A DNA stretch of 35,259 nucleotides from Planctomycetota bacterium (GCA_027001995.1 JALTLO010000170.1:1-35259); one strand, 5' to 3'. Positions 1,721 to 18,047 are shown, counted from the stretch's first letter. Numbers and translations are program-made. The notes: generated by a model from the letters alone, not told the origin.

Positions 1721-4629
1721 CAGAAATCCTCGCCACGATAAAGAACACAGGCCACCCGCAAGTAGGGATTGTCGGCAGTTCTTAGCTGTTCTAAGTAGTC
1801 TTCGTGTTTATCAATTTCGCGGTCGAAGTTTCGGCGGTCTTCGGCGAGTTTCTTGGCGGCGGTGCTAGTGGTGTTGGAGACCTTTGATTCTCGGTTGGCA
1901 AAAATGGCAAACATCTTCTTCTTCCAGCGATCACGACGACGCTGCTCGGCTTTGAGCCACGGCAAAATGTCCTGGCCACGTGATGTGCGAAGATCCGACA
2001 TGTGGCTTTTTGCCCGTTTGACTGCTTGTGGCAAGAGCGCTTCGATGGGCGCCCCATCGATGGCCTTATCAGGATTGGCTAAGGACTTCTTGTCACTGAG
2101 GCCGGAGAGACGGGCGAGGTTTTCAAAGTCGCGAATACTGTGGGGTTCTGTGCTTGCGCCTAAGAAACTCACGCCGAACCAGGCGACGAGTACCGGTCGG
2201 CTGCGACGGTTGGCGAGTTGTCCCTGGAAGACAATGACTTTTTCGCCGGGCTCTAAGCCATTCTTAACTAAGATCAAAGGGGCCTCATGGCGCTCAAAGG
2301 AGGCCAGGACTCGATCGGTGAGCCATTCGCTAAAAGGATGAAGCTCCCAGAAGAGCTGCCATTTAGGCCAGCTATTGGCATCTTTTCTTGATTGAGCAAG
2401 GGCCTCTTTGACTAAGTCACGATCGGTGGTGAAGCGCGCCGCTTCGATCTTGCGGTCGAGTTCAACTGGCAAGTAGGCGTAGCGTCTGGTTAGGTCTGGA
2501 GGGGTCTCTATGAGCTCAAAGCCCTGCATGTCGCTAATCCCCTGGATGCAGGAGCTTTCGCCAATTTCCTCTAAGGAGCCTCTGGCAAAGATGAGGTCGT
2601 CATCGATGAGATGGAAGGGGTCTTTGGTGGGTACTTCCTGAGATGTGGAGATTCCTGATTCCTCGTCATCGTTGGCGAACAGCTCAACCAAGAAATCATA
2701 AGAGTCGTCTCTCGCTGGCGTGTCAGGAATGAGGTCTTCAGGGCTTGCCTTCTCCTCAATGCCCTTGGCGATTGTTTCTTCTTCTTTGGACGCATCGTGG
2801 AGCTGAAGAAGGTCGGCGACGTCGCCTAAGTTCTTTTGGGCGTATTCTTCTTTCTCGATGAGACGTTCCAAAATGCGCGCATCGCCTTGAAGGGACTTTG
2901 TCTCAGGGATGGTGAGAAGATAATGGATCTGAGGATCTTCTGTTTGGCCATAACGATCGATGCGACCATTGCGCTGCTGAAGAGTGATGAGACTCCAGGG
3001 GATGTCGTAGTGAAAAAGACGGAAGCAGCAGAAATGAAGATTGATGCCTTCAGCGGCGGCATCAGAACAGAGTAGAACTTTGACCTTGCTGTCTTCGGTG
3101 CCAAAGTCACGGATGATTTCTGTTTGTTGGCGATCGTCCATGGAGCCATTAAACGTTGCGATTTGGACTGGTTTGAAACCGCAGTTGCCTAGCAAGTGAT
3201 CAGCCAGGCTGGCCAAAGTGGCTATGCGCTCAGAGAAAACAACCACACGGGGGGAAGTCCTTTTATTGGATATTTCATGGGCTTTCAGGAGAGCTGTAAA
3301 TTTCTTGAGCTTGGCACCGCCAGATTTGACCAGAGGATCATTTTCTGCGGAGAGAGCCGCAAGTTCACTCATATCATGTTCAATGGGCGCTAAGACATCT
3401 GGGCGGTCCTTCGCCTCATCAGCCATTTTCGCCAACTTCTTTTGGCGCTCGGCGATAGTCTCATGAAGGGCCCGAGGTGAAGAAAGGAAGGCCTTCTTAA
3501 GGGTTGTGGTAAACAACATCGACCCAGAACGTGTACCTCCTCGACTCGTGGCACGCAGGTCAAGGGCTTCTAAGCGGCCGAGAACAACCTCTTCTTGAGG
3601 TTCAGCGGTGATTTTCTCGCCATGAATTTGTCGTTGTCGAAACGCTTGGCCGACTTCTGCCGCTACATCTTTCTTGAAGCGTCGGACGAAGAGGCCTCTT
3701 ACGTCTTCCCTGCCATAGTCAGAGGGATCGGCGATGGCAGTTGGGTCCAAGAGATTCATGAGGCTGGCGAAACTCTCGGGTTTGCCGTCGTGAGGCGTGG
3801 CTGAAGTGAAGATCAAGGAATCGGCGGTATTGGCCAAGAGCTTGGCGAGCTTGGCTCTTTGGGAAGTCGAGGAACCTCGTTCAGCCACATTTTGGCACTC
3901 ATCGACAAGCACAACATCCCAGCGGCATTCTTCGAGGTAGCGAGCGTATTTTGTGTCTTTCTTAAGAGTATCAATGGAAATAATGCAGCGATTGAAATGA
4001 TGAAATGGATTCATCGAAGCTGGGATTCGACGTTGGATGCGCTGAAGCCCGACAGAGTCAAGGCGCACCAGCGGGATGGTGAAACGGGCCCAGAGCTCTT
4101 CTTGAAACTGGGCCAAAATACTCTTCAGGGCAACGACTAAGATTCGTTCACCCCGCCCTCTGCGAATGAGCTCAGAAAGAAGTATGCCTGCCTCGACCGT
4201 CTTGCCCATACCCACACCATCAGCCATCAAGATGCGAGCCCTTGGTCGTTCTAAAGCTTTGTGGGCCGGCACCATTTGATAATTGGTGACGTCAAGCGCT
4301 GCCCGATGACCAACGGCAATAACGTTGTCTGTGGGGGGCGACTTCCTCAGGAGTGCTTCGAGGTAGAGTCTTGAACGACGATATCTTGGGGTTGGGTCAT
4401 GGACCAGCTTGGTCTGTTCCGGTCGCAGTTCGACAATCTTGTCAAGATCGCTGAGATAAATGGCGTCCTTGCCACGAACAAGTTCAGAGACGCCGGTCAC
4501 ATGAACGGCCAAGCACTCATCGGACACCCAATCGCACTTACGAACGATCCACTCTTCGTCACGAATCTCGACTCGTGAGCCTGGTGCGTATGTCACATAG
4601 GCCTGTTTCTTTGTCTTGAGTCGCGCCAT
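1720..4629 (-). CDS. SNF2-family helicase, DISARM DrmD-like (969 aa)
   Basis: Motifs MADGVGMGKT, LVDECQN, SATPHDG, AAAEGINL and QRNGRIDRYGQ. N-terminal PGSRVEIRDEEW segment. Translationally coupled to the MTase gene. Confidence 0.88.
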   Translation of the reverse strand: MARLKTKKQAYVTYAPGSRVEIRDEEWIVRKCDWVSDECLAVHVTGVSELVRGKDAIYLSDLDKIVELRPEQTKLVHDPTPRYRRSRLYLEALLRKSPPTDNVIAVGHRAALDVTNYQMVPAHKALERPRARILMADGVGMGKTVEAGILLSELIRRGRGERILVVALKSILAQFQEELWARFTIPLVRLDSVGLQRIQRRIPASMNPFHHFNRCIISIDTLKKDTKYARYLEECRWDVVLVDECQNVAERGSSTSQRAKLAKLLANTADSLIFTSATPHDGKPESFASLMNLLDPTAIADPSDYGREDVRGLFVRRFKKDVAAEVGQAFRQRQIHGEKITAEPQEEVVLGRLEALDLRATSRGGTRSGSMLFTTTLKKAFLSSPRALHETIAERQKKLAKMADEAKDRPDVLAPIEHDMSELAALSAENDPLVKSGGAKLKKFTALLKAHEISNKRTSPRVVVFSERIATLASLADHLLGNCGFKPVQIATFNGSMDDRQQTEIIRDFGTEDSKVKVLLCSDAAAEGINLHFCCFRLFHYDIPWSLITLQQRNGRIDRYGQTEDPQIHYLLTIPETKSLQGDARILERLIEKEEYAQKNLGDVADLLQLHDASKEEETIAKGIEEKASPEDLIPDTPARDDSYDFLVELFANDDEESGISTSQEVPTKDPFHLIDDDLIFARGSLEEIGESSCIQGISDMQGFELIETPPDLTRRYAYLPVELDRKIEAARFTTDRDLVKEALAQSRKDANSWPKWQLFWELHPFSEWLTDRVLASFERHEAPLILVKNGLEPGEKVIVFQGQLANRRSRPVLVAWFGVSFLGASTEPHSIRDFENLARLSGLSDKKSLANPDKAIDGAPIEALLPQAVKRAKSHMSDLRTSRGQDILPWLKAEQRRRDRWKKKMFAIFANRESKVSNTTSTAAKKLAEDRRNFDREIDKHEDYLEQLRTADNPYLRVACVLYRGEDF

Positions 4630-5030
4630 TAGATGATTGCAATCGTGAGGTCTGTGTGCCCTAGCCTCTTGGCCACGGCATTGAATACTTCGACGTCATC
4701 GTCGAGCCCAAGGCATGACGCTGCGTCATCAGAAGCATCATTTTCGAGAACGAAGTAGCGAGCCGCTACCATGACTGCCTGACAAGCTGAAAAAGGTGCA
4801 TCAGATCCCAAGCGACGGATCAGTTTCGTGCAACCAAGAGACAGTTGCTCGGCGGTAGTGAGATCAAGAGTCTCATCTTGCCTATGTAGCTCCCGAAGAT
4901 GGCCCAGATAGGATTGGACTTCCCGCAATAAAGCCTCACCGCCAGGCCACTGAGCATCCATTAACTTTACGGCAATACTACGTTCTTTATCTGGAAGCTC
5001 ATTTAACCATTCAGTCGACATGGGCGGCAC
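4629..5030 (-). CDS. YkvA/DUF1232-like small protein
   Basis: C-terminal YFVLENDASDD...LGLDDDVEV resembles the DUF1232 pattern YxxxPxDxIPD..xGxxDD. Stop overlaps the helicase start (TAATG). Confidence 0.6.
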   Translation of the reverse strand: MPPMSTEWLNELPDKERSIAVKLMDAQWPGGEALLREVQSYLGHLRELHRQDETLDLTTAEQLSLGCTKLIRRLGSDAPFSACQAVMVAARYFVLENDASDDAASCLGLDDDVEVFNAVAKRLGHTDLTIAII

Positions 5031-5183
5031 TCTTTATCATTAGTCTCAAACTTCCCTCCACGCTGAGGGGTGGAGGGCAGAACACTCATGGGGCAGGTAT
5101 AGACGAGTTATTGTCTGCCTCGGTCCTGCTCTCTACTGGTCCAAGATTAGCGATCGTAGCGAAATCTGCAAGAGTTTGAGCAC

Positions 5184-6119
5184 TCAGGGGAGCAGATCCT
5201 CCAACCAATTGCGCAAGTACTCCAGAACTTTTTCCTCAGACCCCGGAGCAAATGGGATGATTCCCACTTTCTCCTCATGCTGAAATTCTTCAGCTTCAAG
5301 CCAAGGAGCCCCACTGCCTCGGGGGACCAGTAACAGTGCCCCATCGGCATGCTCACCATCTTGGCGAAGCGCGTCTCTGTAGATGTGGGCAGTAGCCATA
5401 GCCTCCAGTACATTGTTTCGCTTGGTTCGATACTTGGCATCGAAAACCAAGAAAGAACTTCCGCCAGATTCATCCGATTTTTGGAGGACAATGTCTGGAC
5501 ACCTCATCCCGGAAATGGAGTAGAAGCTCGAAGACGAAGCGCCATTCGAAGCAGAAAAAGTCTGTTGCAAGACAACTGAGACTCGAGCACCAGAAGAATC
5601 GGATCCGATCCAGGAAACGCGATCTACCGAATTCGACTTTTGCCGCCGTTTCCATACCAACGCGGGCAATAGTTTTCGAACACCCTTCGCCACAGTGGCA
5701 AAACACCACCGTTCATAAACTTCCCATGTTGGGGCAAGCCAAAATCGAGCCGATGATGTTTGGCCCGAAAGACCTCTTCGAAGAGCTCCCCATCCAAATT
5801 TGAAAGCACGGGAGTAAAGGGGATGTGCGGCCACGGCAGTGAGGCCAGCTGAAGTGATTTCTGAAGATGTCACCTCGTTGAATGGTATTCGTCTCAGAAT
5901 CTGTGAGAGGTCTAATTCAAGGGAATTTAGAAAGGCCAAACGCCTTGGCCAACGGCTTTGGAGCGAAGATCGAGTGGCACTTTCTCTTTCCTTCGCGACA
6001 ATTTCAGAGATTTCTGAACGAACTCGTCGAATGCCTTGTTGGACATTCTTGACCATGGCAGCAAGACAGCGATTTGCCGGACCATCCAAGTGGCGTTCCG
6101 TGCAAGGAACGTCTAACAT
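5184..6119 (-). pseudogene. McrC-like / DUF2357 PD-(D/E)xK nuclease, apparently missing its N-terminus
   Basis: Motifs LDGPANR, HPLYSRAF, TWEVYERWCF, and RCPDIVL...VFDAKYR...AHIYRDAL. It begins mid-domain and overlaps the upstream ORF out of frame. Confidence 0.6.
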
Positions 6120-6595
6120 AGGATTAACATCATCATGCGAGCCAAGCGTCGCACTGCTGCCCCTCGATACGCTATGGTTGTAAAATCAGTGGGATAAAAG
6201 GCGGCCATCACCCGAAAAACTTTTAGGTGCGGCTTGACACGAATTGACTTAGCCAAACGTGCAAGCATTTCATCAGCGAAAGAAGTGAGGTATTTCAACT
6301 TGGCCACTTCGTCTTTCGGCACTGGCTCAAGAGATCGTTTGGCAACCCAAGACCGAAAAACAGGATCGGAGGTGGATTTGGAAACATTGATTGTTCCTTG
6401 GCCTACAGCAGAAACAGGATTCTTCTCCCAAAGGCGATGATGAAATTCAGATGTCGACCGTTCTTGTTCATCAGCGGCTTGTACTCCGTCAAGAAACTCA
6501 GTGAGATTCACGCGCCACTCATTGCCCCGGTGCTTGCGTTCAACATTCGCGCAGATTTTTTGAAGCTCTTCAATCGTCAGAATGTCCATTGACAA
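6113..6595 (-). pseudogene. Probable N-terminal fragment of an McrB-like protein; no NTPase domain present
   Basis: 160 aa ORF directly upstream of the McrC-like nuclease. It has no Walker motifs and ends abruptly in RMMMLILC. The McrB link rests on position and recalled similarity. Confidence 0.4.
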
Positions 6596-6630
6596 GTCCT
6601 TTCTCAGTTCGCTTTCAGAGGATCAGGCCA

Positions 6631-8586
6631 CTAAGGGCCCAGTCGGCGCAGTTGGATCTTTGTGGTGCCGACCTCGATTTCCAAGACGTCTTTGTCGACT
6701 GTCACAATCTTTCCTGGTTCGAGTTCCTGATCGTCTACAATGGGTGCATTCTTGGATCCTGAGTCGGCGGTGAAGGTTACTGATTGTGCTACCAGATCAA
6801 TGATCAATTGACGCCGTGAAACCATGGGATCGTTCACTTGCAAATCACATGCTTGGTGACGCCCCAAGATGTAACAACCCGGGGCCGTCAAAATTTTGTC
6901 ATTTGACCCTGGGATTGAGATCGTCCATGAGACGGATCGGGGCTTTGTGATTGTCTGTTCTGCGGAGCGGGTGGCGGTCCAGTCATTAAGATCCTGTTTC
7001 AATACAGTTTCATCTCCGGAATCCCACGCAACGTCTCGGTCTTCGTTCACGCTTTCCATGAGCGGAGTGACTGATTGTGACGGTAGCATTGGCTCTTGCT
7101 CGGGCGTTACAGCTTGAGAACGGGCAATGGCTTGTGCAGGATTTGATTTTTCATCTTGATGTAGCTCGCGCCGAAGATCAATCAGTGTGGCCAAATCAGC
7201 AAGCTGATGAGGGTCAATCACATGGTGAGCCGAATACAACCAACGTTCGCTGATTTGCTCAATGCCGCCATCGGTCTTGCGGATAAGGAACTCCCCGGGA
7301 TTCAGAGAAGTCAGGCGACTTGCGATGTCGATAACCGCATTTGAAGCACTTCCAATTGTCTCATGAATCCGTTTGCGTTCATTCGCGGATGTCAAGTTGC
7401 CAACGCCCCAAGTTCCCACATTCCCCAATCCTCGATGATCAACTCCAATGACATTCTGAGTCGCCAACAGACTGCAAACGCCAAAAGCCCGCCCCTGACG
7501 GAGGACAACGTTCAAGGATGACTTTGATGGTGGATTGTGAGGATACGATGGGTAGAACCCTTGGGATCCGCCAGCACCTCCGATCTCGTCGATAAAAAGA
7601 AGAAGTCGCGGAGCTGCCGCGCCACCCTGCCCTCTCATCCAACGATAGACGCTATGGCACACTTGTGCCACGACAAATGCCTGGTCAAAGAAGTCGTGCA
7701 AGTGGGCAAGACTCAAAGTGACAATTGGTGTTCGTCCCGACTTCGGCGCCAGCAATTGATCCAAGTCAAATGGGACACCTGTGTACCATTGTGGCTCTAA
7801 CCCCATCAACTGGCTATTAACTTCGCGGCAGAGATCCATGCGACGTCGTTCGGCCATGAACATATCGACAGGGAGATTCCCGAGCCTTTCGACTGGTGGC
7901 GCAATGATCCAACTCACAAGCGTCGAAAGACCGTCCGTGCCCTCAAGATTGACATTGTTTTCCCAGGCGTATTTCAGGAGTTCAAGAAGGAATTGCTCAT
8001 CTTGAGCTGCCTTCGCGCCCTTGGATTCCTTCTGTCGAAGCCGACCAAGAAATGCTCTGACGAATGCCTGCATCAGCTCTAAATAGTCGTTCTTCTCTTG
8101 TTCATCACAATCTTTCGGAGATTTCCCAGGCTTAGGAAACGACGACAATTGGAGAGGCCGAACGCCGGTAGATTTTGGAGTGAAGAGCTGGAAATCAACT
8201 TTCTTGGCAAAAGTCGCAGCTCGCCTCGCCCAAAAAGGATTTGCCCGTTCAGCATCTTTATAACCTCGCACCTGTTCATCGTAGACATCACCAAGAATCG
8301 AGCGAGACAAACTCTCAATCTCGCGGCTCGCACCAAAGTCTGCCCCGGCAAGCGCCATGGAGCTGAGGTCGCCCTTCAGGTCCAAAACGATACATGGGAT
8401 ACCCCCCAGAGCAGCTTCTTCTACAACAGACTTTGAGAGGACTGTCTTGCCAAAACCGCTGGCCCCGCAGACAAATATGTGGGTCATGAGGTCTTTGGGA
8501 TCAAGAAAAGTAGCTTCACCAATCTTACGGTGACGCGACATTGAAGGAATGCTCTTATCACCTACGTAAAGGCCATCATTTGCCAT
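6631..8586 (-). CDS. HerA/FtsK-superfamily (DUF87-type) ATPase with C-terminal FHA domain (651 aa)
   Basis: Walker A GASGFGKT, LDLKGD, Walker B LLFIDE, RQGRAFG, LATQN. C-terminal ILGRHQACD...DPMVSRRQ...SKN is the FHA signature (GR, SR, N). Confidence 0.85.
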   Translation of the reverse strand: MANDGLYVGDKSIPSMSRHRKIGEATFLDPKDLMTHIFVCGASGFGKTVLSKSVVEEAALGGIPCIVLDLKGDLSSMALAGADFGASREIESLSRSILGDVYDEQVRGYKDAERANPFWARRAATFAKKVDFQLFTPKSTGVRPLQLSSFPKPGKSPKDCDEQEKNDYLELMQAFVRAFLGRLRQKESKGAKAAQDEQFLLELLKYAWENNVNLEGTDGLSTLVSWIIAPPVERLGNLPVDMFMAERRRMDLCREVNSQLMGLEPQWYTGVPFDLDQLLAPKSGRTPIVTLSLAHLHDFFDQAFVVAQVCHSVYRWMRGQGGAAAPRLLLFIDEIGGAGGSQGFYPSYPHNPPSKSSLNVVLRQGRAFGVCSLLATQNVIGVDHRGLGNVGTWGVGNLTSANERKRIHETIGSASNAVIDIASRLTSLNPGEFLIRKTDGGIEQISERWLYSAHHVIDPHQLADLATLIDLRRELHQDEKSNPAQAIARSQAVTPEQEPMLPSQSVTPLMESVNEDRDVAWDSGDETVLKQDLNDWTATRSAEQTITKPRSVSWTISIPGSNDKILTAPGCYILGRHQACDLQVNDPMVSRRQLIIDLVAQSVTFTADSGSKNAPIVDDQELEPGKIVTVDKDVLEIEVGTTKIQLRRLGP

Positions 8587-10165
8587 TTTGGATTAAGTTC
8601 CTTGTTTCCTCTAATCGTGCTTGAAGTAGCTCGCTTCCGTCAATGACATCGCGTGCCAGGACTACGATATCATTGAGTACACTTTCCTGCTTGAGGATTC
8701 CGACTGCAATCATGAGATCCTCGATTAACTCTGATTCACAGATTCCCGCTTTCAGGGCACTCAATCCGAATCTTAGCGCCTGAGAATAATCGCCATCACG
8801 AAATCTCAGCGTCGAAATTAGCCGACTTGATATGGCGTCGTCTGGCAGCAAAGGCAAGAGTTCCTTGCACCGTTGGCCAAGATTGGCAGCAAGAAGGTAA
8901 CTTGCTTGCGTTTGAATCAAGCCACCGGCAAGAGGCAAAGACTGCCGAAGCAATTCGACAAGGTTGAGTATCTTCTCACATTTTTCAGCCGGTACAGAAA
9001 ATCGAAGCGCCGTCTCTGCCTGGTCAACAACCTGCATAGCAAATTCTTCGGCGACTTCGTCACATTGGGCAATCGCCTCATAAAGGGAAGTCAGGCACTT
9101 GTCATACTTGCCCGCCATTTCCTCGACTTGAGCACGCGTCATCAAGAGATCAGCGCTCAGCGGCCCTTCAGAGACAGCAAACATGCGCTCAGCCAAGACA
9201 AGATCTTGAATCTTGAATGCAAATCTTAGACCTCGTTTGAGATTCCATTCATTTGGCTGCCGTTGAATCAAAGCAAACTGCCTAACGCTAGCAGCCTGCC
9301 AATTTGCACTCTTAGCTGCTATGGCCACGAGAACCCCAAGCGCGACCGTGGGACGACAATCAGAATTCAGAGCAGACTCCGCAAGTTCGAGGGCACACTG
9401 TTCATCGCCTCTTTCAAATGCTCGCCAAGCCAACAACGCCCCTTCGCGCCTCTCGTCGACTTCTATTTTTAGTTTCTTGGCAATCTGAAGGGCTTTGTCA
9501 AACGCAACGATGGACCTCGTTTGACATGCAGCCATGAGCACTTCGGCAAGGAGGTCTCTGGACGGCAAGATATTGAATGCTTCGAATAGCGCATCAATCT
9601 GAACTTCGCTATTGGCATTTTCTTGTCCTTTTTGGCGAAGTCGAGCCACCCGAGCCTCTGGCTTAGTCTTGACAAGATTACGATCCAATATCCCGGCATC
9701 AGCAAGCTCATCGCGGAGTTGGACAAATGAACTCGCATGCGACGCCTCAAAATCAACAGCGCAAACAGCCCTCACCCAAGTGCTGGCAGGGCTTGGGTCA
9801 CATCTTAAGTGCCACCCCAAGAATGGGCCATGCAGATGGACGTTCCGCGCGGTCCGATCATAGAACACACAAGTAACATTGAGATAACCGAAGAGATCAG
9901 GAACCGCTTCTTCCACTTTGCAAATGTAACCCAAGACTGCGTGAGATTCCTCATGATTTAGCTCCAATGAATTCACGCATTCTCCATGTGGTGTCCGCAA
10001 TCGCACTTGCACTTCGGACGACAACTTGCGCGTACTCAAGACCGGAGAAAAACCGAACCGCGAAGCCATTGACTCGTACCGGTCGATTTCCTCGATCACG
10101 CGCCCGACATCAAAACCTTCAGATGTCGCAAAACACAGTTCAATGCTCTCAGAGTCCAAGGCCAC
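8576..10165 (-). CDS. TPR-like helical repeat protein (~529 aa)
   Basis: Likely start is GTG at 10165, preceded by GAGGGAG and overlapping the upstream stop. Ala/Leu-rich helical repeats include AFERGDEQCALELAESAL, AGKYDKCLTSLYEAI and FRDGDYSQALRFGLSAL. Confidence 0.65.
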   Translation of the reverse strand: MALDSESIELCFATSEGFDVGRVIEEIDRYESMASRFGFSPVLSTRKLSSEVQVRLRTPHGECVNSLELNHEESHAVLGYICKVEEAVPDLFGYLNVTCVFYDRTARNVHLHGPFLGWHLRCDPSPASTWVRAVCAVDFEASHASSFVQLRDELADAGILDRNLVKTKPEARVARLRQKGQENANSEVQIDALFEAFNILPSRDLLAEVLMAACQTRSIVAFDKALQIAKKLKIEVDERREGALLAWRAFERGDEQCALELAESALNSDCRPTVALGVLVAIAAKSANWQAASVRQFALIQRQPNEWNLKRGLRFAFKIQDLVLAERMFAVSEGPLSADLLMTRAQVEEMAGKYDKCLTSLYEAIAQCDEVAEEFAMQVVDQAETALRFSVPAEKCEKILNLVELLRQSLPLAGGLIQTQASYLLAANLGQRCKELLPLLPDDAISSRLISTLRFRDGDYSQALRFGLSALKAGICESELIEDLMIAVGILKQESVLNDIVVLARDVIDGSELLQARLEETRNLIQNGK

Positions 10166-12947
10166 GTACTCCCTCAGGCCTGGGAACGATTGAAGGCAAT
10201 CGATTGCCTGCAAGGTCGAAGACCCCGAATTTATTTTTCTTGAGCAAGCCAGATTGCACCCACACCAAGACACAATTCTCGGCGACACTCCACCGAATAG
10301 TGGCCAATTTCCGAGCGAACCCACTTCCACTACGAACGAAGCAATCGATCTTCTCTATTGAAAATGGAAGCTCGCCAGCAGTAATTCTTGTCCGGAATAT
10401 CTCGCAGAGCTTGCAGAGATTGGATCCAACCGAAAAGTACGCCGACCTTTCATTGCAACAGCTACACGTTTTCAAGTGACTATCACAGAAAATGCCGGTA
10501 TCGAGCGTTGTCGTGACAGCGCATTTATCGCACAGAATCTTGTCATCAAGGCGGCATCTCGCGGTGTGTTCCCAACAGGAATAGTCGCCACAAGAACTGC
10601 AGGCCTCCGCAACTTCTTCTTTCAAAGTCGCCTCGCATCTCACGCACGATTCCCTGTGAGACTCGCATAATTCTTGCCCCGTGATCTTGCATGCCGATAG
10701 ATGATCAACACACGTAGGATGCCCACCCTCTGCACAATGAGGGACCTCCCCGCAAAGGCCACAAAAACGTGCGCTACAGGAACCGCATCCGACCCCCTCA
10801 TCAGGACCAATCGCTACTTCACACGTTTGACAAGGAACGGCACACGTGAGGCAAACGACAGCCCCGGTCAACACCGAGACTACGCGATGAGTGTGGCAAA
10901 CTGGTTTCAGACAGTAGCTGCACTTGGAATCATGCGCTTTGCAGTGCGGTTGATCACAAATTGTGCAATGAACTGTTTCAACCTCCCGAAGTGTCCCACC
11001 GCAATCACTGCATTCAACAATGCACCGCGAACACAATGTGTCGCTACTTAAAGACGCAATTTCTGTATGCTCGGCGCAAATGGGGACCGCGCAAGATTTA
11101 CAAGTTGAACAATGGTCCTCACAAAACTGAGCACTGCTATCGTCGTGCTGCGTGCACCTCTTCAGCTGGTTAGAAAAGTGAACGTGACCGTCAACGGCGC
11201 ATTGGCCAGTACAACCCAAACATGCCATTTGACCAGCTCTAGTTTCTACGCAACATGCCTCACAAAATGGCGCATGACAGCCTTCGCATTTCTGGCTTTC
11301 AATCTCTCCAAGCACAGTCCCACAGGCTCGGCAATCTACGCGATGGGAGTCACAGAATGGTCGATTCGTAAGAGTCGAATCGCCAAGGTGATCGACGCAA
11401 GTGACTTTTCCGCACTGTGTACAGAAGTGATCATTGGCATCCTCGGGGCAAAGCACCTCCGCGCACGTGGACGTGGAACACATGATCCCTTGGGATTTAG
11501 ACATCGTCCCCTTGCAAGCGCTACATTCGACGGCACAGCCACTGCAAAGTGGTGCGTCATCAACGCTGGACCTCAGTGCATGCGAACTACAAACCTTGCC
11601 ACCACATTCTCGGCATGCATAAAGGTGAATCGTGGCGCATTTTCGACAGAATGTCTCACCTTGGGTCTCGCATTGTGAGGAATGTTCTTCCAATCGACAG
11701 ACATCGGCATCACACCGGGCACATTTCGTACGTTCGATACTCAGGTGGCGCTCCCCCCCTATCGAGCAGACAAATGAATGTTTCTCACAAGACCACCCGT
11801 CACCGACGCTAACAGCACAATCGATGCAAACAGAATGACCCTGTTTGGCACAAGCTTCACAAGCAGAATTGGCCGAACCGGTGCTGCAGCAGCGGCATTC
11901 CTGCAAACACTCGTCGCAATAAATTCCTCCAGCAGGATCAATGAGGAGCGGTCGGTCAAGGTGCCCACAACAGATCGCGTCATCTGGGATCTCGGCGCGC
12001 CCTGGAATCGCCGGAATTCTGAACTCAAATTCTCGACCTCGACCGTTCGCGACAATCACCCCTAGGTGTGGCACAACTTCATGAATGACAGTCAAAGAAA
12101 TCGGCATGGCTGCCGCCCTCGCATGGCGGGATTCGTCCAATGATTCAAGGCGAGTTGCCCGCTCGGCTTCAATGGCATCCCTGTCGAAAGGGGCTAAGAG
12201 CAGTTGTCTGTCATAGTAGCGCTCGGTCTCAATACGCTGAGCTTCGACCGCCTGAGTATTGGGACCAATAGCCTCCGCCATGAGACTTGAACCGATCTGA
12301 TCTACTGCATGGGTGATGGAATCAAGCGCGCTACTCAATCGTACTCGGTCGATTTCCTTTGGCAGTGCTCGTGCGATTGCAGGGTGATCTTTCGGGTCAT
12401 AAGTTGTTCGCGCGGCAAACAAGCTTGCAGGAACGAGCTCGCCATCTGCAAGATTTACAAGAACAGGAAAAACCTCGTGAAGGGGCCTTGCGCCATGTAT
12501 CTTGAGCTCAACAAGGGCCCTGAGAAAAGTCCTATAGCCAACCTCCTGCTCCAAAGAGACGAGCTCGTACCCGGGAGGCAACTTCCCCTTCTCGCGAGTC
12601 GACGAGATAAACCGTTTTGCGAAAGAATGGGCATATTCTTCGGCATCAACACGCTTGGGAACCCCGGCAATCACTGATCCAAAGGGTACGTTCTTGCCAC
12701 GCATTAAGTCGAACATGCAGTCAACGACAAAGTTTCCTGGCGCAAGGTACTCAAGCTCGCTGTCGAGCCTCTTCATGTCTTGGGATCCAGTAAGCCGCAC
12801 CGTTGAAAGATTGCCAAACCTTTTCCTTAAGTGAGGTGGAATGATCAATTCAATCTCATGAGGCGATGGCCGCTTCACCGAAATGCCAAGCTCTCGGCAA
12901 ACATCCACGACAAAGCGTTCTAACTCACTTGTTATCCACGCACTCAA
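10149..12947 (-). CDS. YqhG-like N-terminal domain plus ~520 aa Cys/His-rich repeat region (932 aa)
   Basis: GTGA overlap with the upstream SNF2 gene. Residues 326-~848 are tandem CxxC-x4-Cxx(H/C) units. The N-terminal ~290 aa resembles YqhG in layout and gene position. Confidence 0.75.
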   Translation of the reverse strand: MSAWITSELERFVVDVCRELGISVKRPSPHEIELIIPPHLRKRFGNLSTVRLTGSQDMKRLDSELEYLAPGNFVVDCMFDLMRGKNVPFGSVIAGVPKRVDAEEYAHSFAKRFISSTREKGKLPPGYELVSLEQEVGYRTFLRALVELKIHGARPLHEVFPVLVNLADGELVPASLFAARTTYDPKDHPAIARALPKEIDRVRLSSALDSITHAVDQIGSSLMAEAIGPNTQAVEAQRIETERYYDRQLLLAPFDRDAIEAERATRLESLDESRHARAAAMPISLTVIHEVVPHLGVIVANGRGREFEFRIPAIPGRAEIPDDAICCGHLDRPLLIDPAGGIYCDECLQECRCCSTGSANSACEACAKQGHSVCIDCAVSVGDGWSCEKHSFVCSIGGERHLSIERTKCARCDADVCRLEEHSSQCETQGETFCRKCATIHLYACRECGGKVCSSHALRSSVDDAPLCSGCAVECSACKGTMSKSQGIMCSTSTCAEVLCPEDANDHFCTQCGKVTCVDHLGDSTLTNRPFCDSHRVDCRACGTVLGEIESQKCEGCHAPFCEACCVETRAGQMACLGCTGQCAVDGHVHFSNQLKRCTQHDDSSAQFCEDHCSTCKSCAVPICAEHTEIASLSSDTLCSRCIVECSDCGGTLREVETVHCTICDQPHCKAHDSKCSYCLKPVCHTHRVVSVLTGAVVCLTCAVPCQTCEVAIGPDEGVGCGSCSARFCGLCGEVPHCAEGGHPTCVDHLSACKITGQELCESHRESCVRCEATLKEEVAEACSSCGDYSCWEHTARCRLDDKILCDKCAVTTTLDTGIFCDSHLKTCSCCNERSAYFSVGSNLCKLCEIFRTRITAGELPFSIEKIDCFVRSGSGFARKLATIRWSVAENCVLVWVQSGLLKKNKFGVFDLAGNRLPSIVPRPEGVRGLGL

Positions 12948-15900
12948 AGCCCAATTTCCGCATCAGACCCCAGGCCAATAAGCAAAGAGTCAAAGCGATT
13001 TGCAGAGACATTCGAATCTGCCGCTTGCCGGGCTTCTTGGATGCGTTCTCCCCCACGGCGTGCGATTGAAGGGTCAATTTCGCCAGCACTTCCCTGTTGA
13101 AGTGCCTTCCGCACAAATCCCTCGACAGATTCACTGTCCTTGAACTGGCCGAGTATTGCCTCTACGAATCCAAATACCGTTTCGAACATCCCTAATTTCT
13201 GTTCGATATATTCGATAACGAGATTTTCGATGGTCTCCTCTGCCATGAGATTGAGCACCAGAACTTCGCGAAACTTGCTGCCAAGACGCTGAATTCGGCC
13301 TATCCGTTGTTCGATCTGTTGCGGGTTCCAAGGTAGGTCTAGGTTAATCATACATCTCGCAAATTGAAGGTTTACTCCTTCCGACAGCCCCACTCCAGTC
13401 ACAAGAAAACGAGTTTTGGCATCGTGCTGAAACTGCTTGATCGCTTTTACGGTCCCATTTCCACTCCAAGCAGTTCGGTAACCTGCAGACTCAAGTGCGG
13501 CACAAATCTCTTTTTGGCTGGCGACAAACTGCGAGAAGATAATCACTTTTTCTTCGCCTGCATTCATCAATTGTGGGACAATCTGATCGATGAGACATCG
13601 AGTCTTGAAATGAGAGGACTGCGCCACACTTCGAATGTGGTCCAAGAAATCACTACCGACCGAAGAATCAAGGAGCGCCTGAAACGAAGAACAAAACTGG
13701 CGAGCGCGAGTGGTGATGACTAATCCGCCGGAAACGCTACCTTGTAGAGCACCAATGAATCCTTTGTAGGCTTTCGACTCCTTGGCGCTTAGGGTAATCC
13801 GGAAGGTTTGTGACTTCCTACTCGGGAAGGCCTTGTGTACCATTTCTCTTCGATTACGAATCATGACCTCTTCAAGTGTTGACTGCAGCATGTCCAAGTT
13901 TTTTACCGCCCAATTGCCTTTTCTACCGCCAAAAAAAGAAATGAATGCATTTGTGTCCTCTGCAAATAGGCCGGGTCGAAGGAGACTCACAAGGTCATAG
14001 AGTTCTGTCAGGCTGTTTCTTGCCGGCGTCGCGCTCAACAGGAGCATTCGCCGAGTCTTGAGCGAAGCGACCAGTCTGCCAAGATTGTTGGCCTTTCTCC
14101 CTGGACGGGCTCGATGCGCCTCGTCAACGATAACGACATCCCAAGGCGACTGGCGAAACATTTCGAAATTGTCCCGCCGACTAGCAATGGAATGAGACAC
14201 AACCACAAAAACCTCGTTTCGATGAAAAGACCGACGGTCTGAAGTTTCACCATCCCCCGTCCCAAAGACTTGGACGTTATTGATTCTGAATTTCATGCGC
14301 ATCTCTTCCGCCCATTGCATTTTCGTTTGTGGGGGAACAAGAACCAATATCCGTTTGGCTTCCTTGCGAACAATGTATTCTTTTACAATCAAGCCGGTTT
14401 CAATTGTCTTTCCCAACCCGACCTCATCCGCCAAAATACCACGTCCTCCAAAATCTCGCAGGACTTTCAGTGCGGCACCGGTCTGATAAGGGTAAGGTGA
14501 AACATCAATGTAGGGCAAACATGTGAGTTCTTCGTAGGCTGGCAACCTTTGAAGAGAGGCAGCCCTTTCTGCAAGATCGATTATTTCAGCAGGGGCGCCA
14601 TCAGGGGCACCATCGCACGCAATTTGCAGTTGATGACGTAAATTGGCCTTAAATCCATCGATTCTGGCGGCGCCAACGCTTGCGACTCCTTTCAACCATG
14701 TCCCACATTTCCAGCACAGAAAATAGTCCCGACCTTGAGGAGCGTCACACCGTTCGCAACGATTAACAACCGCATGCTCGCTATTTTCGATTTTGCTGAA
14801 GGCGGCATGAAACAAATCTTGAGCACTGCGCACACTTGCAGGTCGATCACCGGGAGCTTCCGATCTTAAGGTCGCGACGACTTCGACCAAGCTTGATGGC
14901 AGACTCCTTTCAGCACTGAAAGGTATAGTGTGCAGCACTTTCTTGGGATCACTGGCTCCCCGCGACTGCAGTAAACAAGATAAGATGCCGCCCAATGCGT
15001 AGAGATCACTTTGGACAGAATATGTCCCTAATTGAGCTTCCGGGGCCCAAAAAAACCGAGTGCCCGCATGAATGTCATCTCGCTCAGACATGGAAGCAAT
15101 TCCAAAGTCAATCAGCCGAACCGTAAGAGGATTTTTCTCAACCATAATGTTACTGGGTTTCAGGTCACGAAATAAGACTTGACCGCCCAAGAAGTTGTGC
15201 AAATAGTCCAATCGGTCGCAAATCTGATCAAAGACCTGGCGAACAAATGCTGCATCGATGGCGGCGGGGTCAGCTGATTCTAAATGCACCCTGAGATCCT
15301 CGCCTTCGAGGAGATCCATCGGCATGAAGAAAGCACCTTCAAACTCAAAGGATTCATAGACCCGTGGGAAATAGTCAGGACGATCAATCAGGGTGAGCAA
15401 CTCGACTTCGTTCTTGAGGGCGATTCTATCGACTCCTTCCCGACGTCGAAGTGTTTTTAGGGCAACTTGCCGCGAGCGTTGCAAGTCGAGAGCACATAGC
15501 ACCTGTCCCATTCCTCCTTCGCCCAACAACGCAATTACTTCATAACGGTCGTCAAGAACCTCACCAGCTTCATAGCGTACAGTGTTGACGACCGACTCTG
15601 CTCCTTTCGAAGTATTGCCAACTGGTTTCGCTCTGGGCGGAGTTGTAAGCGTCGGCGATAATGCGGGGTGACCAAGTATTGTTACCTCTTTTCTGCCCAC
15701 GACTATCGAGCGTTTCACTCGAGGAGTTGTCATTGTCAATTCTGGAAACAGAATTCCGTTTAGTCCAGGGGCGACACCTATCTCCTCTGGAACGACAGGC
15801 AGATCATCTTTCTTTGGCCCCCCCCGGGCCGGTGGTGTCCTTGTGCTACTCAACAGATCTATTCGTTCATTATCAGCCGATTCGATTTTTCTCGTTTTCG

Positions 15901-16168
15901 GTTCATCGCGCGGAACGGGTTCAGGGTTCTTCGCTCTACCGGTCTTGGCAACAGACTCCCAAAGAGGTCTTTTGGATTCACCACGACAACTTCGGAAGTT
16001 TTTCCCATGAACACCAGAATAGAGAATGCTATTGATTTCTTGCTTTGTGACGATGTGCCCTTCACCTCGAAGTCGATCGCCAATGGAATGAGCACAAAGT
16101 GGTTCGTTTGATCGAATCAAGACTCGGCATATTTGGTCCGCGAGCTTTTTGCGAGCATCGATGGTCAT
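12944..16168 (-). CDS. Fusion of Z-alpha-like winged helix, Hanks-type Ser/Thr kinase, zinc ribbon and YqhH-type SNF2 helicase (1074 aa)
   Basis: Kinase motifs LGEGGMGQV, VALK, RDLKPSN, DFG, APE and SDLYALG. Zinc ribbon CERC...CWKCG. Helicase motifs ILADEVGLGKT, VDEAH, SATP, EGVNLQ and EQRIGRIQR. N-terminal KQEINSILYS...RPLW. Confidence 0.88.
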   Translation of the reverse strand: MTIDARKKLADQICRVLIRSNEPLCAHSIGDRLRGEGHIVTKQEINSILYSGVHGKNFRSCRGESKRPLWESVAKTGRAKNPEPVPRDEPKTRKIESADNERIDLLSSTRTPPARGGPKKDDLPVVPEEIGVAPGLNGILFPELTMTTPRVKRSIVVGRKEVTILGHPALSPTLTTPPRAKPVGNTSKGAESVVNTVRYEAGEVLDDRYEVIALLGEGGMGQVLCALDLQRSRQVALKTLRRREGVDRIALKNEVELLTLIDRPDYFPRVYESFEFEGAFFMPMDLLEGEDLRVHLESADPAAIDAAFVRQVFDQICDRLDYLHNFLGGQVLFRDLKPSNIMVEKNPLTVRLIDFGIASMSERDDIHAGTRFFWAPEAQLGTYSVQSDLYALGGILSCLLQSRGASDPKKVLHTIPFSAERSLPSSLVEVVATLRSEAPGDRPASVRSAQDLFHAAFSKIENSEHAVVNRCERCDAPQGRDYFLCWKCGTWLKGVASVGAARIDGFKANLRHQLQIACDGAPDGAPAEIIDLAERAASLQRLPAYEELTCLPYIDVSPYPYQTGAALKVLRDFGGRGILADEVGLGKTIETGLIVKEYIVRKEAKRILVLVPPQTKMQWAEEMRMKFRINNVQVFGTGDGETSDRRSFHRNEVFVVVSHSIASRRDNFEMFRQSPWDVVIVDEAHRARPGRKANNLGRLVASLKTRRMLLLSATPARNSLTELYDLVSLLRPGLFAEDTNAFISFFGGRKGNWAVKNLDMLQSTLEEVMIRNRREMVHKAFPSRKSQTFRITLSAKESKAYKGFIGALQGSVSGGLVITTRARQFCSSFQALLDSSVGSDFLDHIRSVAQSSHFKTRCLIDQIVPQLMNAGEEKVIIFSQFVASQKEICAALESAGYRTAWSGNGTVKAIKQFQHDAKTRFLVTGVGLSEGVNLQFARCMINLDLPWNPQQIEQRIGRIQRLGSKFREVLVLNLMAEETIENLVIEYIEQKLGMFETVFGFVEAILGQFKDSESVEGFVRKALQQGSAGEIDPSIARRGGERIQEARQAADSNVSANRFDSLLIGLGSDAEIGL

Positions 16169-16259
16169 GGCGCGACTATTTGCCTTGCGAATTAATGTTG
16201 AAACCTGAGATCCTTGCTCCGAAACAAAGATGCAAACGCGCCTTCACGGAACTACGCGC

Positions 16260-16288
16260 AAGTTATTCGGTCCCAAACTGGCTGTCAA
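16260..16288 (-). promoter_or_regulatory. Candidate sigma70 promoter for the kinase-SNF2 operon
   Basis: Minus strand reads TTGACA, 17 bp spacer, TAACTT, about 90 bp upstream of the ATG at 16168. Confidence 0.5.
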
Positions 16289-16538
16289 GACAGAGGATTG
16301 TCACACGCCATGTGGAAAAGGGGATTTTACCGAGAAACGGCGAGCCGGGTCCGTGAGCATGTGCAGCAAGAAGTGCGGTAGGAACGACTTACACCGAACA
16401 CCTGAGTGCTCTGCAATTCGCAGAAAGAGAGAATCAACAGGCGAATTCGAACTCCGCCCTCATTCGGCAACACCTACCCCACACAGCCACTGGCTTCCAG
16501 GGAAAATCGAGAGCATTCTATCGTGTGAGAGTTCTGGA

Positions 16539-18047
16539 TCAGCGATACTGCTTGAGGCAATCCAGGGCGAGGGCCAAAAGGAGCAAACAGGTGATGAGCC
16601 CTAACCATGGGCCCCAGGGTTGTGCTCTTGAGGACGGATTGGTTGCGGGGCAGGCTTGTTGGGGTGATGTAGAAGCTTGGGTTTCGTTGAGGCGGCTTTC
16701 GAGAGGTTGCGAGGTTGGGTCATGAGGCTGCCAGGCATTGGTGCTGCCTGAGCCTTCGAAACCAAGTTCAGTTAGAAGTGCTCGAATCATGAGGGGGAAG
16801 AACGCTCTCTCAGCCCATTTCGATTTGATGGGATCACCAGCAACGAAGATCGTGTTCGTCGCCTTCTCCTTAACCACCACCGGACCTGACTGAGTGCTTA
16901 CCAACAGTTGGAAGCCTTGGGGCAGAGGTGTTTGAAAACGTTGTTGAAAGAGCCAGTCGTTGATTCCTGGCAGGTCATTGAGCTTGGCAGATCGACGTGT
17001 TGTCGCTTCTGGACTCATCAACACTTGTTTGGGAAGGGAAGTTGCAGCCATGACTAAGTTGCCTCGGGCACTGGGTGTGGGCATCCCCACAGACAGGACA
17101 AACTGCGAACGAGTCGTGGTGGAATTTACCGCCATGATGGGGTCAAAACGCAAGGCCGCTGCGGCGTCCCACATGGCTTGCCATGTTTCTGAGCCGCGCC
17201 CCGGTTCCGAAAAAACCAGACGCGCTGGGTGGGGACGGGACAACGTCATCTGGTTGTCAAAAGAAAGATCATCCTGTTGGGGGAGCCTTATGATCAAACT
17301 TTGGGCGTCTTGAGGAATGCTCAGAGCCACTGTTTCCTGTTGGTATTGGCTCACCCCTCCTTCAAAAGTAAGGGCGTGAATAGGAGTCGGCAATCCGGGG
17401 ACCAGTATTTGGACTTCGACCTTGCCACCGATCTCATTTGTAGTGCGTGCAATGGCGACAAATAAGCTGATACCACCTTCAGTCGCCGGAACTGCGCGGG
17501 CCTTTACAAGTCCCACGTTGTGCACGGGATCACTGATCACTTGAAAACCAACGTTCGGCGGCAAGCTGACGTTGGCTGCTAAGAAATCAGATACGATTTC
17601 CGTACGGCGCCCCCGGTAATCCGCCGATGACAAGAGCTGAGTCCAATGGGGAGGAAAGCCGTTCTTGTCAGGAGGTAGAAATACAACGTCTACGGAGCCT
17701 CTATTTTCCTTTTTCAACTCGCTGACCCGAAGTTTCGCTCCTGCGACTCGATTGGGGGCCCCCATGGACCCACTTTGATCGACCAAAACGAGGAGCGGGT
17801 CTTCCTCAACATAAGCTGGATTCACGATTGTCAGAATGATCAACAACCCAGCGAGCAACTCAAGAAGTAGACGCCAAGGAATACGCAAAGCGGTGGTTTG
17901 CCCCTGCCCTTGCTCAGCCAAAAGCTGTTGCCAAATCGCCAAAGTACTGACATTGCGTCCCAATTCTCCTGTTCGCCTCAGTCGCCACCAACAAAGAGCA
18001 ATAAAGGGAAGAAGAAGCCACAAGAATTGGGGATTGATGAGAATCAT
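16539..18047 (-). CDS. BatA-domain / vWA-like membrane protein
   Basis: N-terminal NPQFLWLLLP...STLAIW...LLLELLAGLLIILTIVNP BatA pattern. MIDAS-like DQSGSM. C-terminal hydrophobic helix. Confidence 0.75.
   Translation of the reverse strand: MILINPQFLWLLLPFIALCWWRLRRTGELGRNVSTLAIWQQLLAEQGQGQTTALRIPWRLLLELLAGLLIILTIVNPAYVEEDPLLVLVDQSGSMGAPNRVAGAKLRVSELKKENRGSVDVVFLPPDKNGFPPHWTQLLSSADYRGRRTEIVSDFLAANVSLPPNVGFQVISDPVHNVGLVKARAVPATEGGISLFVAIARTTNEIGGKVEVQILVPGLPTPIHALTFEGGVSQYQQETVALSIPQDAQSLIIRLPQQDDLSFDNQMTLSRPHPARLVFSEPGRGSETWQAMWDAAAALRFDPIMAVNSTTTRSQFVLSVGMPTPSARGNLVMAATSLPKQVLMSPEATTRRSAKLNDLPGINDWLFQQRFQTPLPQGFQLLVSTQSGPVVVKEKATNTIFVAGDPIKSKWAERAFFPLMIRALLTELGFEGSGSTNAWQPHDPTSQPLESRLNETQASTSPQQACPATNPSSRAQPWGPWLGLITCLLLLALALDCLKQYR

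Follow-up and report, generated by a model that had tools for sequence, protein, structure and literature searches.

The window analysed here is the entire contig JALTLO010000170.1 (35,259 nt) of a Planctomycetota bacterium (GCA_027001995.1; genome G000, contig C170). Four minus-strand open reading frames (ORFs), termed A, B, C and D in their order of reading, fill the 9.5 kb between positions 6631 and 16168, as seen from the ORF listing and from direct reading. They encode a protein that joins a Hanks-type Ser/Thr kinase to a Swi2/Snf2 ATPase core, a cysteine-rich protein, a helical protein with TPR-like stretches, and an ATPase of the HerA/FtsK superfamily that ends in an FHA domain (Table 1). 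A preliminary description, made from the DNA alone, had proposed these genes as an undescribed phospho-signalling defence system whose gene starts overlap the preceding stops. The overlaps are confirmed by direct reading of the junctions: the TGA stop of A shares four nucleotides (TTGA) with the TTG start of B, 17 nt are common to the end of B and the GTG start of C, and the end of C and the ATG of D overlap by 11 nt (ATGGCAAATGA). In the gene caller's version B is an 875-aa protein (P0001) that starts at Met58; since residues 1–57 are conserved among orthologues, with L9, V13, G21 and F44 invariant, the TTG start and the overlap with A are the better choice. For C, the maximal ORF listing places the start further upstream, at a GTG at 10330; the GTG at 10165 has a Shine-Dalgarno sequence (GAGGGAG) just 5' of it, and the database protein P0122 has 529 aa. 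The sigma70 promoter suggested ahead of A finds no support. A perfect TTGACA (16288–16283) is followed after 17 nt by TAACTT, of which only three of six positions agree with TATAAT, and a consensus promoter scan called no promoter-like site on the minus strand between 4400 and 16700; its total was four sites against 8.2 expected by chance.

The same order A-B-C-D is present in eight genomes (G000, G401, G402, G695, G834, G863, G815 and G819). Alignment of D led to the loci of G401 (L015) and G402 (L016), which are about 90% alike and hold A, B, an unnamed ORF of the size of C, and D. Genome searches with a B profile added G695 and then G834, G863, G815 and G819, all with the complete block; by this search the seven carriers other than the window make up 7 of 154 genomes of one other order. 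In the blocks found with the B profile the maximal ORFs overlap by 4 or 11 nt, and across all block instances, the window included, by 4–17 nt. Identity to the window proteins is 32–34% for A, 32–37% for D and about 20% or less for B and C. Both the kinase and the FHA domain were seen in seven of the eight genomes, the contig end cutting off the former in G819 and the latter in G402, and the two co-occur wherever contigs show both regions. None of the flanking genes is common to the block loci across lineages. Because the gene order is conserved between non-homologous flanks, the four genes themselves are the unit, and we regard A-B-C-D as a conserved, separable four-gene block.

Its distribution near the window is patchy. 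The block was not found in two genomes of the same genus (completeness 83% and 89%) or in six of the same family, and among 61 relatives the B profile matched two, G000 and G054. The latter, from the window's phylum, carries a degenerate pair of a kinase-SNF2 gene and a B-like gene (L087, G054:C4, 9645–14326), in which the kinase Lys is replaced by Arg and the HRD Asp by Gly and motif I of the SNF2 core is lost; tblastn detected no D homologue near this pair. A C homologue from the Joint Genome Institute (JGI) and the closest D homologue listed (50% identity) both lie on contigs of length 21458. A look-up of sequencing runs listed no RNA run that carries the sequence, and the best DNA run is labelled as a hydrothermal vent metagenome.

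Gene A is the largest of the four. Pfam assigns it a Pkinase domain (residues 209–403, 1.7e-28, 100.2 bits against a cut-off of 31.7), an SNF2-rel_dom (577–804, 1.1e-35, 123.6 bits) and a Helicase_C domain (863–963, 5.7e-15, 56 bits). The claim of an intact Hanks kinase with K238 and D335 holds: residues 209–470 comprise the glycine loop GEGGMGQV (216–223), the VAIK lysine (K238), the αC glutamate (E254), the aspartates of the HRD (D335) and DFG (D354) motifs and an APE motif (375–377), the full set expected of a Hanks-type kinase. K238, E254, D335 and D354 are kept in the A proteins of the window, G401 and G402, and D335 is not kept in the G054 copy; the glycine loop occurs in all six full-length A proteins. 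The kinase is followed by a zinc ribbon whose cysteines (C471, C474, C485 and C488) are invariant in four of four aligned A sequences. Residues 548–1020, with a GxGKT motif I, a DExH motif II and a Helicase_C lobe, are a Swi2/Snf2 ATPase core, which ends about 110 residues past Helicase_C. By sequence, the top PDB match of residues 520–1074 is RapA of E. coli (3.6e-28), and the core matches the PADLOC models of DrmD (7.7e-59), BrxHI/II (3e-52), HmaA and DpdE, while A stays below every NCBIfam equivalog cut-off, helicase models included.

The region ahead of the kinase cannot be aligned between lineages, and yet it has the same layout in all six full-length orthologues, which begin with a small helical domain and continue into a linker rich in Thr, Ser and Pro. 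Threonine accounts for 9–17% of the 120 residues before the glycine loop in these six proteins, compared with 4–5% elsewhere. From this composition we propose the linker of A (residues 86–205 in the window) as a phospho-acceptor region. Each of the six linkers examined contains recurrent [A/S]-T-R motifs, which may be an acceptor motif. The pre-kinase linker of the G695 orthologue (L118, G695:C130, ~6138–6800) contains at least six repeats of the type TAATR.

Gene B belongs to no Pfam (E ≤ 0.01), PADLOC or NCBIfam family. The label YqhG-like given to it earlier finds no support: Pfam YqhG (PF11079) was absent from the N-terminal regions of B in the window, L015 and G054, where no family at all appeared at E ≤ 5, and the sole lead was an Atlas feature match (0.89) to a cluster with YqhG in 15% of its members. 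The N-terminus resembles the C-terminal domain of RapA instead. An AlphaFold2 (AF2) model of residues 1–330 built from seven orthologue sequences reached a predicted local distance difference test score (pLDDT) of 73.7 and a predicted template modelling score (pTM) of 0.61. With this model Foldseek retrieved four RapA entries (5.7e-8 to 9.5e-7, prob 1.00), and VIA superimposed residues 3–293 on RapA 711–968 with Z 8.8–9.3 over 236–240 aligned residues at a root-mean-square deviation (rmsd) of 6.3–6.9, the next unrelated row having Z 6.8. Residues 3–293 hence show a RapA C-terminal-domain-like fold, by structural match only. An hhalign comparison of the B N-terminal alignment with the neighbouring DrmD-like SNF2 protein gave no relation (probability 0.35%), and word-indexed protein searches with whole B and with residues 1–330 returned only B itself, all relatives having come from the genome profile searches. 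The remainder of B is rich in cysteine: the window protein as a whole has 89 Cys and 29 CxxC motifs and its orthologues 42–56 Cys and 6–8 CxxC, so that the array varies strongly between lineages. To judge from this pattern it is probably a fast-changing zinc-binding surface. Given that the RapA-like core of A ends shortly after Helicase_C and that B begins with a module modelled like the RapA C-terminal domain, A and B look like one remodeler of the RapA/DrmD/BrxHII type, split at the start of its C-terminal domain.

Gene C is the least conspicuous member. The TPR assignment of the preliminary description has sub-threshold matches behind it: TPR_14 matches the window protein at E 0.0098 (16.9 bits, cut-off 23.5) and all four C members tested at E 2e-4 to 0.075, in every case below the Pfam gathering score, and the JGI homologue is a TPR repeat protein by its source annotation. 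There is otherwise no Pfam family at E ≤ 0.01 and no PADLOC model. The family is very small: a search of 1.84 billion representatives yielded 15 proteins at E ≤ 1e-3, one of its NCBI members being named as a Myxococcota metagenome-assembled genome. A C profile run over 401 genomes of the window's phylum gave matches at E ≤ 1e-3 in 233 genomes and a full-length match in G000 only; the others listed are short TPR-like stretches, the longest covering model positions 12–312 (G161).

Gene D matches HerA_C in Pfam (27.7 bits, cut-off 22) and DUF87 below its cut-off (19.5 against 23.2). Its Walker A motif (GASGFGKT, 41–48) and Walker B residues (D333-E334) are invariant in 16 sequences, which together place residues 1–465 among the P-loop ATPases of the HerA/FtsK superfamily. 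The FHA domain read earlier at the end of this gene scores above the Pfam cut-off, and its phosphothreonine (pThr)-loop residues G575, R576, S590 and N613 do not vary in any of the 16 D sequences. FHA-bearing D proteins form 11 non-self clusters among the 120 best matches listed, and the C-terminal fusions in the clade, among the matches listed, include TPR, Mrr, kinase and DnaJ. The nearest relatives without FHA (35–38% identity) are encoded at 10 loci in cassettes of S-like, PglZ, N6-methyltransferase and HerA genes; others are fused to an Mrr nuclease beside McrBC. These settings associate the clade with defence, and the ATPase clade of D is a recurrent defence motor with exchangeable C-terminal modules, FHA being the one found in the A-B-C-D block. 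A metagenome scan with the D alignment returned at least seven loci, and those listed lack the FHA part.

Table 1 Features of the A-B-C-D block and of its neighbourhood in the window
Feature	Position	Strand	Residues	Description
Intergenic region 5' of A	16169..16538	-		370 bp; TTGACA at 16288-16283, weak -10
Gene A	12944..16168	-	1074 aa	ORF; winged helix, Thr/Pro-rich linker, Hanks Ser/Thr kinase, Zn ribbon, RapA-like SNF2 ATPase core
A, winged-helix-like domain	15974..16168	-	1-65	three helices; AF2 single-sequence model, pLDDT 59.9
A, Thr/Ser/Pro-rich linker	15554..15913	-	86-205	Thr 10% vs 4% in rest of A
A, kinase domain	14759..15544	-	209-470	Gly loop, VAIK Lys, αC Glu, HRD, DFG, APE
A, CxxC...CxxC zinc ribbon	14705..14758	-	471-488	between kinase and helicase
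A, SNF2 ATPase core	13109..14527	-	548-1020	motif I GLGKT, motif II DEAH 682-685
Gene B	10149..12947	-	932 aa	ORF, TTG start; RapA-C-terminal-domain-like module, then Cys-rich array
B, RapA-like module	12069..12941	-	3-293	alpha/beta module and long helical hairpin, resembles RapA 711-968
B, Cys-rich region	10272..11969	-	327-892	~570 aa, probable zinc-ribbon array
Gene C	8576..10165	-	529 aa	ORF; helical, TPR-like, very small family
Gene D	6631..8586	-	651 aa	ORF; HerA/FtsK-superfamily (DUF853-type) ATPase, disordered linker, C-terminal FHA
D, FHA domain	6646..6879	-	570-647	Pfam FHA 572-636, 31.8 bits vs cut-off 20.7
Neighbouring same-strand genes	2..6595	-		160-aa ORF, PDDEXK_7 nuclease, 133-aa ORF, DrmD-like SNF2, N-terminus of type IIG-like methyltransferase
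PDDEXK_7 nuclease	5184-6119	-		Pfam/PADLOC
DrmD-like SNF2	1720-4629	-		Pfam/PADLOC
Type IIG-like methyltransferase, N-terminus	2-1720	-		Pfam/PADLOC

The window copy of the block lies in a defence island. In the same-genus genome G002 the genes xseA-ispA-dxs-DUF58-BatA are followed about 1.5 kb on by proC (84% identical), whereas in G000 about 41 kb separate BatA from proC, spread over window positions 1–16538 and contigs C196 and C41. This difference marks an inserted defence island of which the block is the first unit. The methyltransferase gene cut at the left end of the window continues on C196 and then on C41 as a gene of about 1500 aa; its three parts cover positions 5–554, 577–1292 and 1312–1511 of the PADLOC type IIG model, with overlaps of 9 nt and 6 nt between the contig ends. 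Before proC, C41 further encodes a DDE transposase, an Old-family nuclease (1.9e-195), a KAP/PifA-like NTPase, an HNH-RuvB-like AAA protein, SatD, an HNH protein, a 2108-aa DruE-like helicase (1.4e-108) and a GajB-like NERD/UvrD helicase. The block is thus accessory and sits inside a defence island. The defence neighbourhood first noticed in the window extends to other lineages: in G401 the BREX (bacteriophage exclusion) genes BrxE-BrxA-BrxC-PglX lie downstream of D, in G695 the same genes lie divergently upstream of A, in G863 a McrB-like AAA+ gene follows D directly, and in G402 an MkoA-like helicase is encoded upstream of the block. In G815 and G819 the contigs do not extend far enough for the surroundings to be assessed. 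The G863 locus (L132, G863:C131) also holds, 7 kb past D, a BrxE-like stretch (3331–3528, 77 aa, 38% identity, E 3.5e-7); no other BREX genes were found at this locus, and the stretch may be a remnant or a stand-alone domain.

On balance, A-B-C-D is probably a self-contained, horizontally mobile module directed against invaders, most likely phages, in which two nucleic-acid motors are joined by a phosphothreonine switch. A and B would together form the split remodeler, the ATPase core coming from A and the module resembling the C-terminal domain from B, out of two translationally coupled genes; it would be extended by the Hanks kinase of A and by the fast-evolving zinc-ribbon array of B, the array serving as a sensing or binding surface. 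The variable N-terminal domain of A and the array of B could sense invader nucleic acid, or a perturbed or stalled polymerase. On engagement the kinase would phosphorylate A in its Thr-rich linker, perhaps along with other targets, the FHA domain of D would dock on the pThr marks, and the HerA/FtsK motor would thereby be recruited or switched on, with the TPR-like C as scaffold of the assembly. As output, the motors might remove or translocate DNA or proteins of the invader, the kinase might shut the cell down, or the response might be passed on to a restriction module nearby. The idea that the kinase writes and the FHA domain reads fits the conserved catalytic and pThr-binding residues and the Thr-rich linker present in every full-length A. 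Of the circuit first proposed, the co-occurrence of kinase and FHA and the conservation of their key residues bear scrutiny; its other half, nucleic-acid sensing through a Z-alpha domain, does not gain similar backing from an N-terminal domain that is not conserved.

Several observations weigh against a self-contained defence module. In line with what had been noted before, neither Pfam nor PADLOC reveals a nuclease, toxin or other obvious effector in the four genes. Of the five lineages in which the flanking sequence is long enough, three have the block next to N6-methyltransferase systems, so the block could depend on these and not be autonomous. The flanks in G834 are not shown to be defence genes, three large ORFs there giving nothing or a weak sphingomyelinase-like match in phmmer searches of the PDB; the flanking ORFs of G695 likewise gave nothing usable. 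The FHA domain of the window has Gln where most homologues have His (consensus VSRRHL), and the match of B to RapA comes from a medium-confidence model (pLDDT 73.7, seven sequences) with an rmsd above 6 Å and no sequence-level counterpart. Seven of the eight carrier genomes belong to one order, and the Myxococcota, to which one C-family member is assigned by name, are rich in housekeeping Hanks kinases and FHA proteins.

The dependence on a neighbour just raised can be put as an explanation of its own, in which the block is the accessory sensing, helicase and kinase layer of a methylation system (BREX, or DISARM/type IIG-like) and needs the methyltransferase or nuclease of that system to tell self from non-self and to kill. 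We consider this unlikely, while taking it as the most serious competitor. It has an analogy in PglW, BrxHI and BrxD of type 2 BREX, and it would account for a block without a nuclease of its own; N6-methyltransferase systems adjoin the block in the window (type IIG-like) and in G401 and G695 (BREX, in differing arrangement), only 35 nt without a terminator-like site separate D from the next gene of the window, the SNF2 core of A matches the BrxHI/II, DrmD, DpdE and HmaA models noted above, and the closest relatives of D without FHA are encoded with S-like, PglZ and methyltransferase genes. The partner differs by lineage, however, being type IIG-like in one and BREX in others, and no flanking gene co-varies with the block. 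Moreover, the contigs of G834 (90.7 kb) and G863 (37.5 kb) carry no methyltransferase of PF02384 or PF07669, a search that did not extend to C5 and N4 enzymes, and defence islands are rich in restriction-modification and BREX genes anyway, which makes three adjacencies weak statistics.

Housekeeping or stress signalling is a less probable alternative still. Here a RapA-like remodeler under the control of Ser/Thr phosphorylation would work on RNA polymerase or in chromosome maintenance together with an FHA-recruited HerA/FtsK ATPase, as in developmentally complex bacteria. RapA is indeed the closest solved relative of both the A core and the B N-terminus, no effector was found in the block, most instances fall in one order, and a further kinase-like ORF lies among unannotated genes in the flanks of G834. 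A household function sits poorly, on the other hand, with a patchy occurrence, the carriers numbering 7 of 154 genomes in that order and 1 of 401 in the window's phylum, with absence from the same-genus genomes searched, and with a window copy inserted along with 41 kb of defence genes at a site that is empty in the congener. Against it also stand the very fast divergence of B and C and the translationally coupled operon beside BREX or McrB-like genes in G401, G695 and G863. That the block is machinery of a mobile element for DNA processing, transfer or anti-defence, with no role in host defence, is highly improbable: HerA/FtsK ATPases also serve conjugation and packaging, homologues of D have weak TrwB, TraG and FtsK matches in Pfam and the island includes a DDE transposase, but two scans of IMG/VR gave no B match and a single D relative, which lacks FHA, no relaxase, integrase or capsid gene was seen beside the block at the annotated loci, and the nearest integrase of the window lies 13 kb off, past core genes.

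Returning to the reading as a defence module, we compared the block with described systems (PMC13662399 for MADS, PMC12839542 for BREX diversity, PMC10853773 for Dnd and HerA capture, PMC7159879 for conflict systems and PMC11341870 for KKP, each in the portions accessible). It fails the defining features of each of the nearest ones. No PADLOC or NCBIfam system model fits the block, neither A nor D reaches an equivalog cut-off, and full-text literature searches, whose scope left out the supplements of BREX and Dnd papers with their possible neighbourhood lists, found no system of this composition; within these bounds the earlier statements that no named system has this make-up and that PADLOC would return no complete match are borne out. 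The block is therefore a credible new candidate defence module, whose function and mechanism we infer from context. Type 2 BREX (Pgl: PglW kinase, BrxHI helicase, BrxD ATPase, PglX, PglY and PglZ) resembles it in bringing together a Ser/Thr kinase, a helicase and an extra ATPase. The block, in contrast, has no PglZ, PglX or BrxC inside, its kinase is fused to SNF2 and not to a NERD nuclease as in PglW-type proteins, and it adds an FHA reader, a Cys-rich protein and a TPR protein; A scores 36.7 bits against the NCBIfam PglW model (cut-off 990). None of the proteins A–D matches the PglZ, BrxC or PglX models, and BREX genes of any type were seen only as neighbours, in G401 and G695.

MADS is an eight-gene operon, mad1–mad8, and a methylation-associated system with a kinase, ATPases and nucleases; as far as the accessible description goes it has no SNF2 fusion, FHA domain or Cys-rich protein (PMC13662399). 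The kinase of A matches mad6 (5e-37) and D matches mad8 (7e-12) in PADLOC, likenesses confined to generic kinase and P-loop parts. An assignment of the block to MADS was rejected, given that only these two models matched, that A reaches 92.2 bits in NCBIfam MAD6 where the cut-off is 460, and that the other mad genes have no equivalents in the block. With RapA, DrmD and BrxHII helicases the block shares the ATPase core of A and the N-terminus of B, but its C-terminal module is on a separate polypeptide, and a kinase, a Zn ribbon and a Cys array are added. A falls short of the NCBIfam DrmD models (199 and 171 bits, cut-offs 950 and 610), as does the neighbouring SNF2 protein, and no DrmA, DrmB or DrmC lies beside the block. 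The type IIG-like methyltransferase and the DrmD-like SNF2 gene were also considered as DISARM (defence island system associated with restriction-modification) and rejected: the methyltransferase gene ends beside the transposase on C41, DrmA, DrmB and DrmC are lacking, and the two matches of G000 to DUF1998, the domain of DrmB, fall in the DruE-like 2108-aa protein and on contig C17, with no DrmAB pair beside the methyltransferase.

Phage defence with a Hanks kinase and an FHA domain is known from the KKP (kinase-kinase-phosphatase) system of Pf prophages, where, according to the accessible text, a PP2C phosphatase is followed by two kinases, fused to CSD and FHA, and the FHA domain on the Hanks kinase is needed for toxicity or defence (PMC11341870). 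KKP as described there has two kinases, a phosphatase and no motors, whereas the block has one kinase and carries its FHA domain on a HerA-type ATPase; Pfam found no PP2C or other phosphatase in the 26 ORFs of the window. HerA/FtsK capture systems such as DndH and BRC (PMC10853773, PMC12839542), and HerA with SIR2 or DUF4297, share the use of a HerA/FtsK ATPase as defence motor. They pair HerA with a nuclease, SIR2 or a modification enzyme, unlike the block. The term FHA occurs 0 times in the two papers cited. The PADLOC HerA models match D at 6e-4 and 9e-3 only. Finally, the kinase of A matches the models of the single-gene kinase PD-T4-6 (3.7e-36) and could itself be the effector; PD-T4-6 is a stand-alone kinase, while the block has its kinase as a single domain within an assembly of four genes and two motors. 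Stk2 is also a single-gene kinase defence.

The N-terminus of A had been described as a Z-alpha domain. What can be upheld is a winged-helix-like fold in a low-confidence model of residues 1–65. Compared by VIA with 48,161 chains, the model ranks I73R of African swine fever virus first (Z 8.0, 59 aligned residues, rmsd 2.4), with generic winged helix-turn-helix domains tied to within 1 Z (Z 6.5–7.0) and the Z-alpha domains of ZBP1 and cyprinid herpesvirus 3 lower (Z 5.8–6.3); the top Foldseek rows include I73R, ADAR1 Z-alpha and PKZ at non-significant E values (1.8–6.7). Searches with the N-terminus gave no Pfam family at E ≤ 5 and no match in the PDB by phmmer at E ≤ 10, and residues 1–65 are not alignable to the A orthologues. 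Z-alpha domains combine Lys, Asn and Tyr in the recognition helix with Pro and Trp in the wing, and the stretch KQEINSILY...PLW of the window protein resembles this motif. A Z-alpha domain in A is accordingly a weak, lineage-specific possibility suggested by the model, and no property of the family. A more ambitious proposal builds on it, namely a new class of bacterial immunity in which a eukaryote-like pThr writer-reader pair physically couples a split RapA-type remodeler, equipped with a Hanks kinase and a hypervariable Zn-ribbon sensor, to an FHA-recruited HerA/FtsK ring, the sensor end in the window bearing a Z-alpha-like domain; we hold this in its entirety to be doubtful. If it were true, the acquisition of the Z-alpha-like domain would give bacteria a counterpart to the sensing of Z-form nucleic acids by ZBP1, ADAR1 and PKZ.

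Should the block protect against phages, its defence logic would be phosphothreonine signalling between two motors instead of nuclease switching or a nucleotide second messenger. It would then offer a tractable model for Hanks kinases in immunity, of value since the targets of neither PglW nor MAD6 have yet been identified. A split RapA-like architecture hints at surveillance of transcription or of DNA translocation, and the repeated adjacency to BREX makes the block a candidate for a missing accessory layer of that system, whose killing step is poorly understood. With four genes in 9.5 kb the block is small and directly testable.

The cassette that encodes relatives of D without FHA (L003, L005 and L007–L014) is a separate four-gene arrangement, as at L009:4138–11899, of a type-I-S-like protein (~500 aa), a PglZ-domain protein (~826 aa), an N6-methyltransferase (~606 aa) and a HerA/DUF853 ATPase (~657 aa). 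Its genes have weak PADLOC matches to mad5, PglZ, mad2 and mad8, and it looks like a BREX-related or MADS-like system of the restriction-modification type. At L009, in Ectothiorhodospira shaposhnikovii DSM 243, the cassette is followed (11905–18874) by Lamassu (LmuA/LmuC/LmuB), a HARE-HTH-Mrr nuclease and an AAA_5 (McrB-like) gene, a dense defence island in a cultured strain.

Downstream of D, the neighbours in the window agree with the first description, which named McrC-like, SNF2 and DNA methyltransferase genes: they are a PDDEXK_7 nuclease, a DrmD-like SNF2 protein and a type IIG-like methyltransferase, with two small ORFs without family among them. Across this group (1720–6595 and the methyltransferase) three junctions overlap, D is followed by a gap of 35 nt and the nuclease by one of 153 nt, and the five genes may be a restriction-type unit of their own. 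The 160-aa ORF, the nuclease, the 133-aa ORF and the methyltransferase have no homologues beside the block in G834, G863, G815, G819 and G695, and at these loci the DrmD-like SNF2 query matched only inside gene A. The nine same-strand genes of the window were considered as a single system, which was rejected on the ground that homologues of the five downstream genes do not accompany the block in other genomes. At a distance from the block, in a stretch of core genes, the window also encodes a XerC/D-like tyrosine recombinase (29719–30621) and a PrkA-type AAA/kinase protein (32562–34826), both of which appear unrelated to it.

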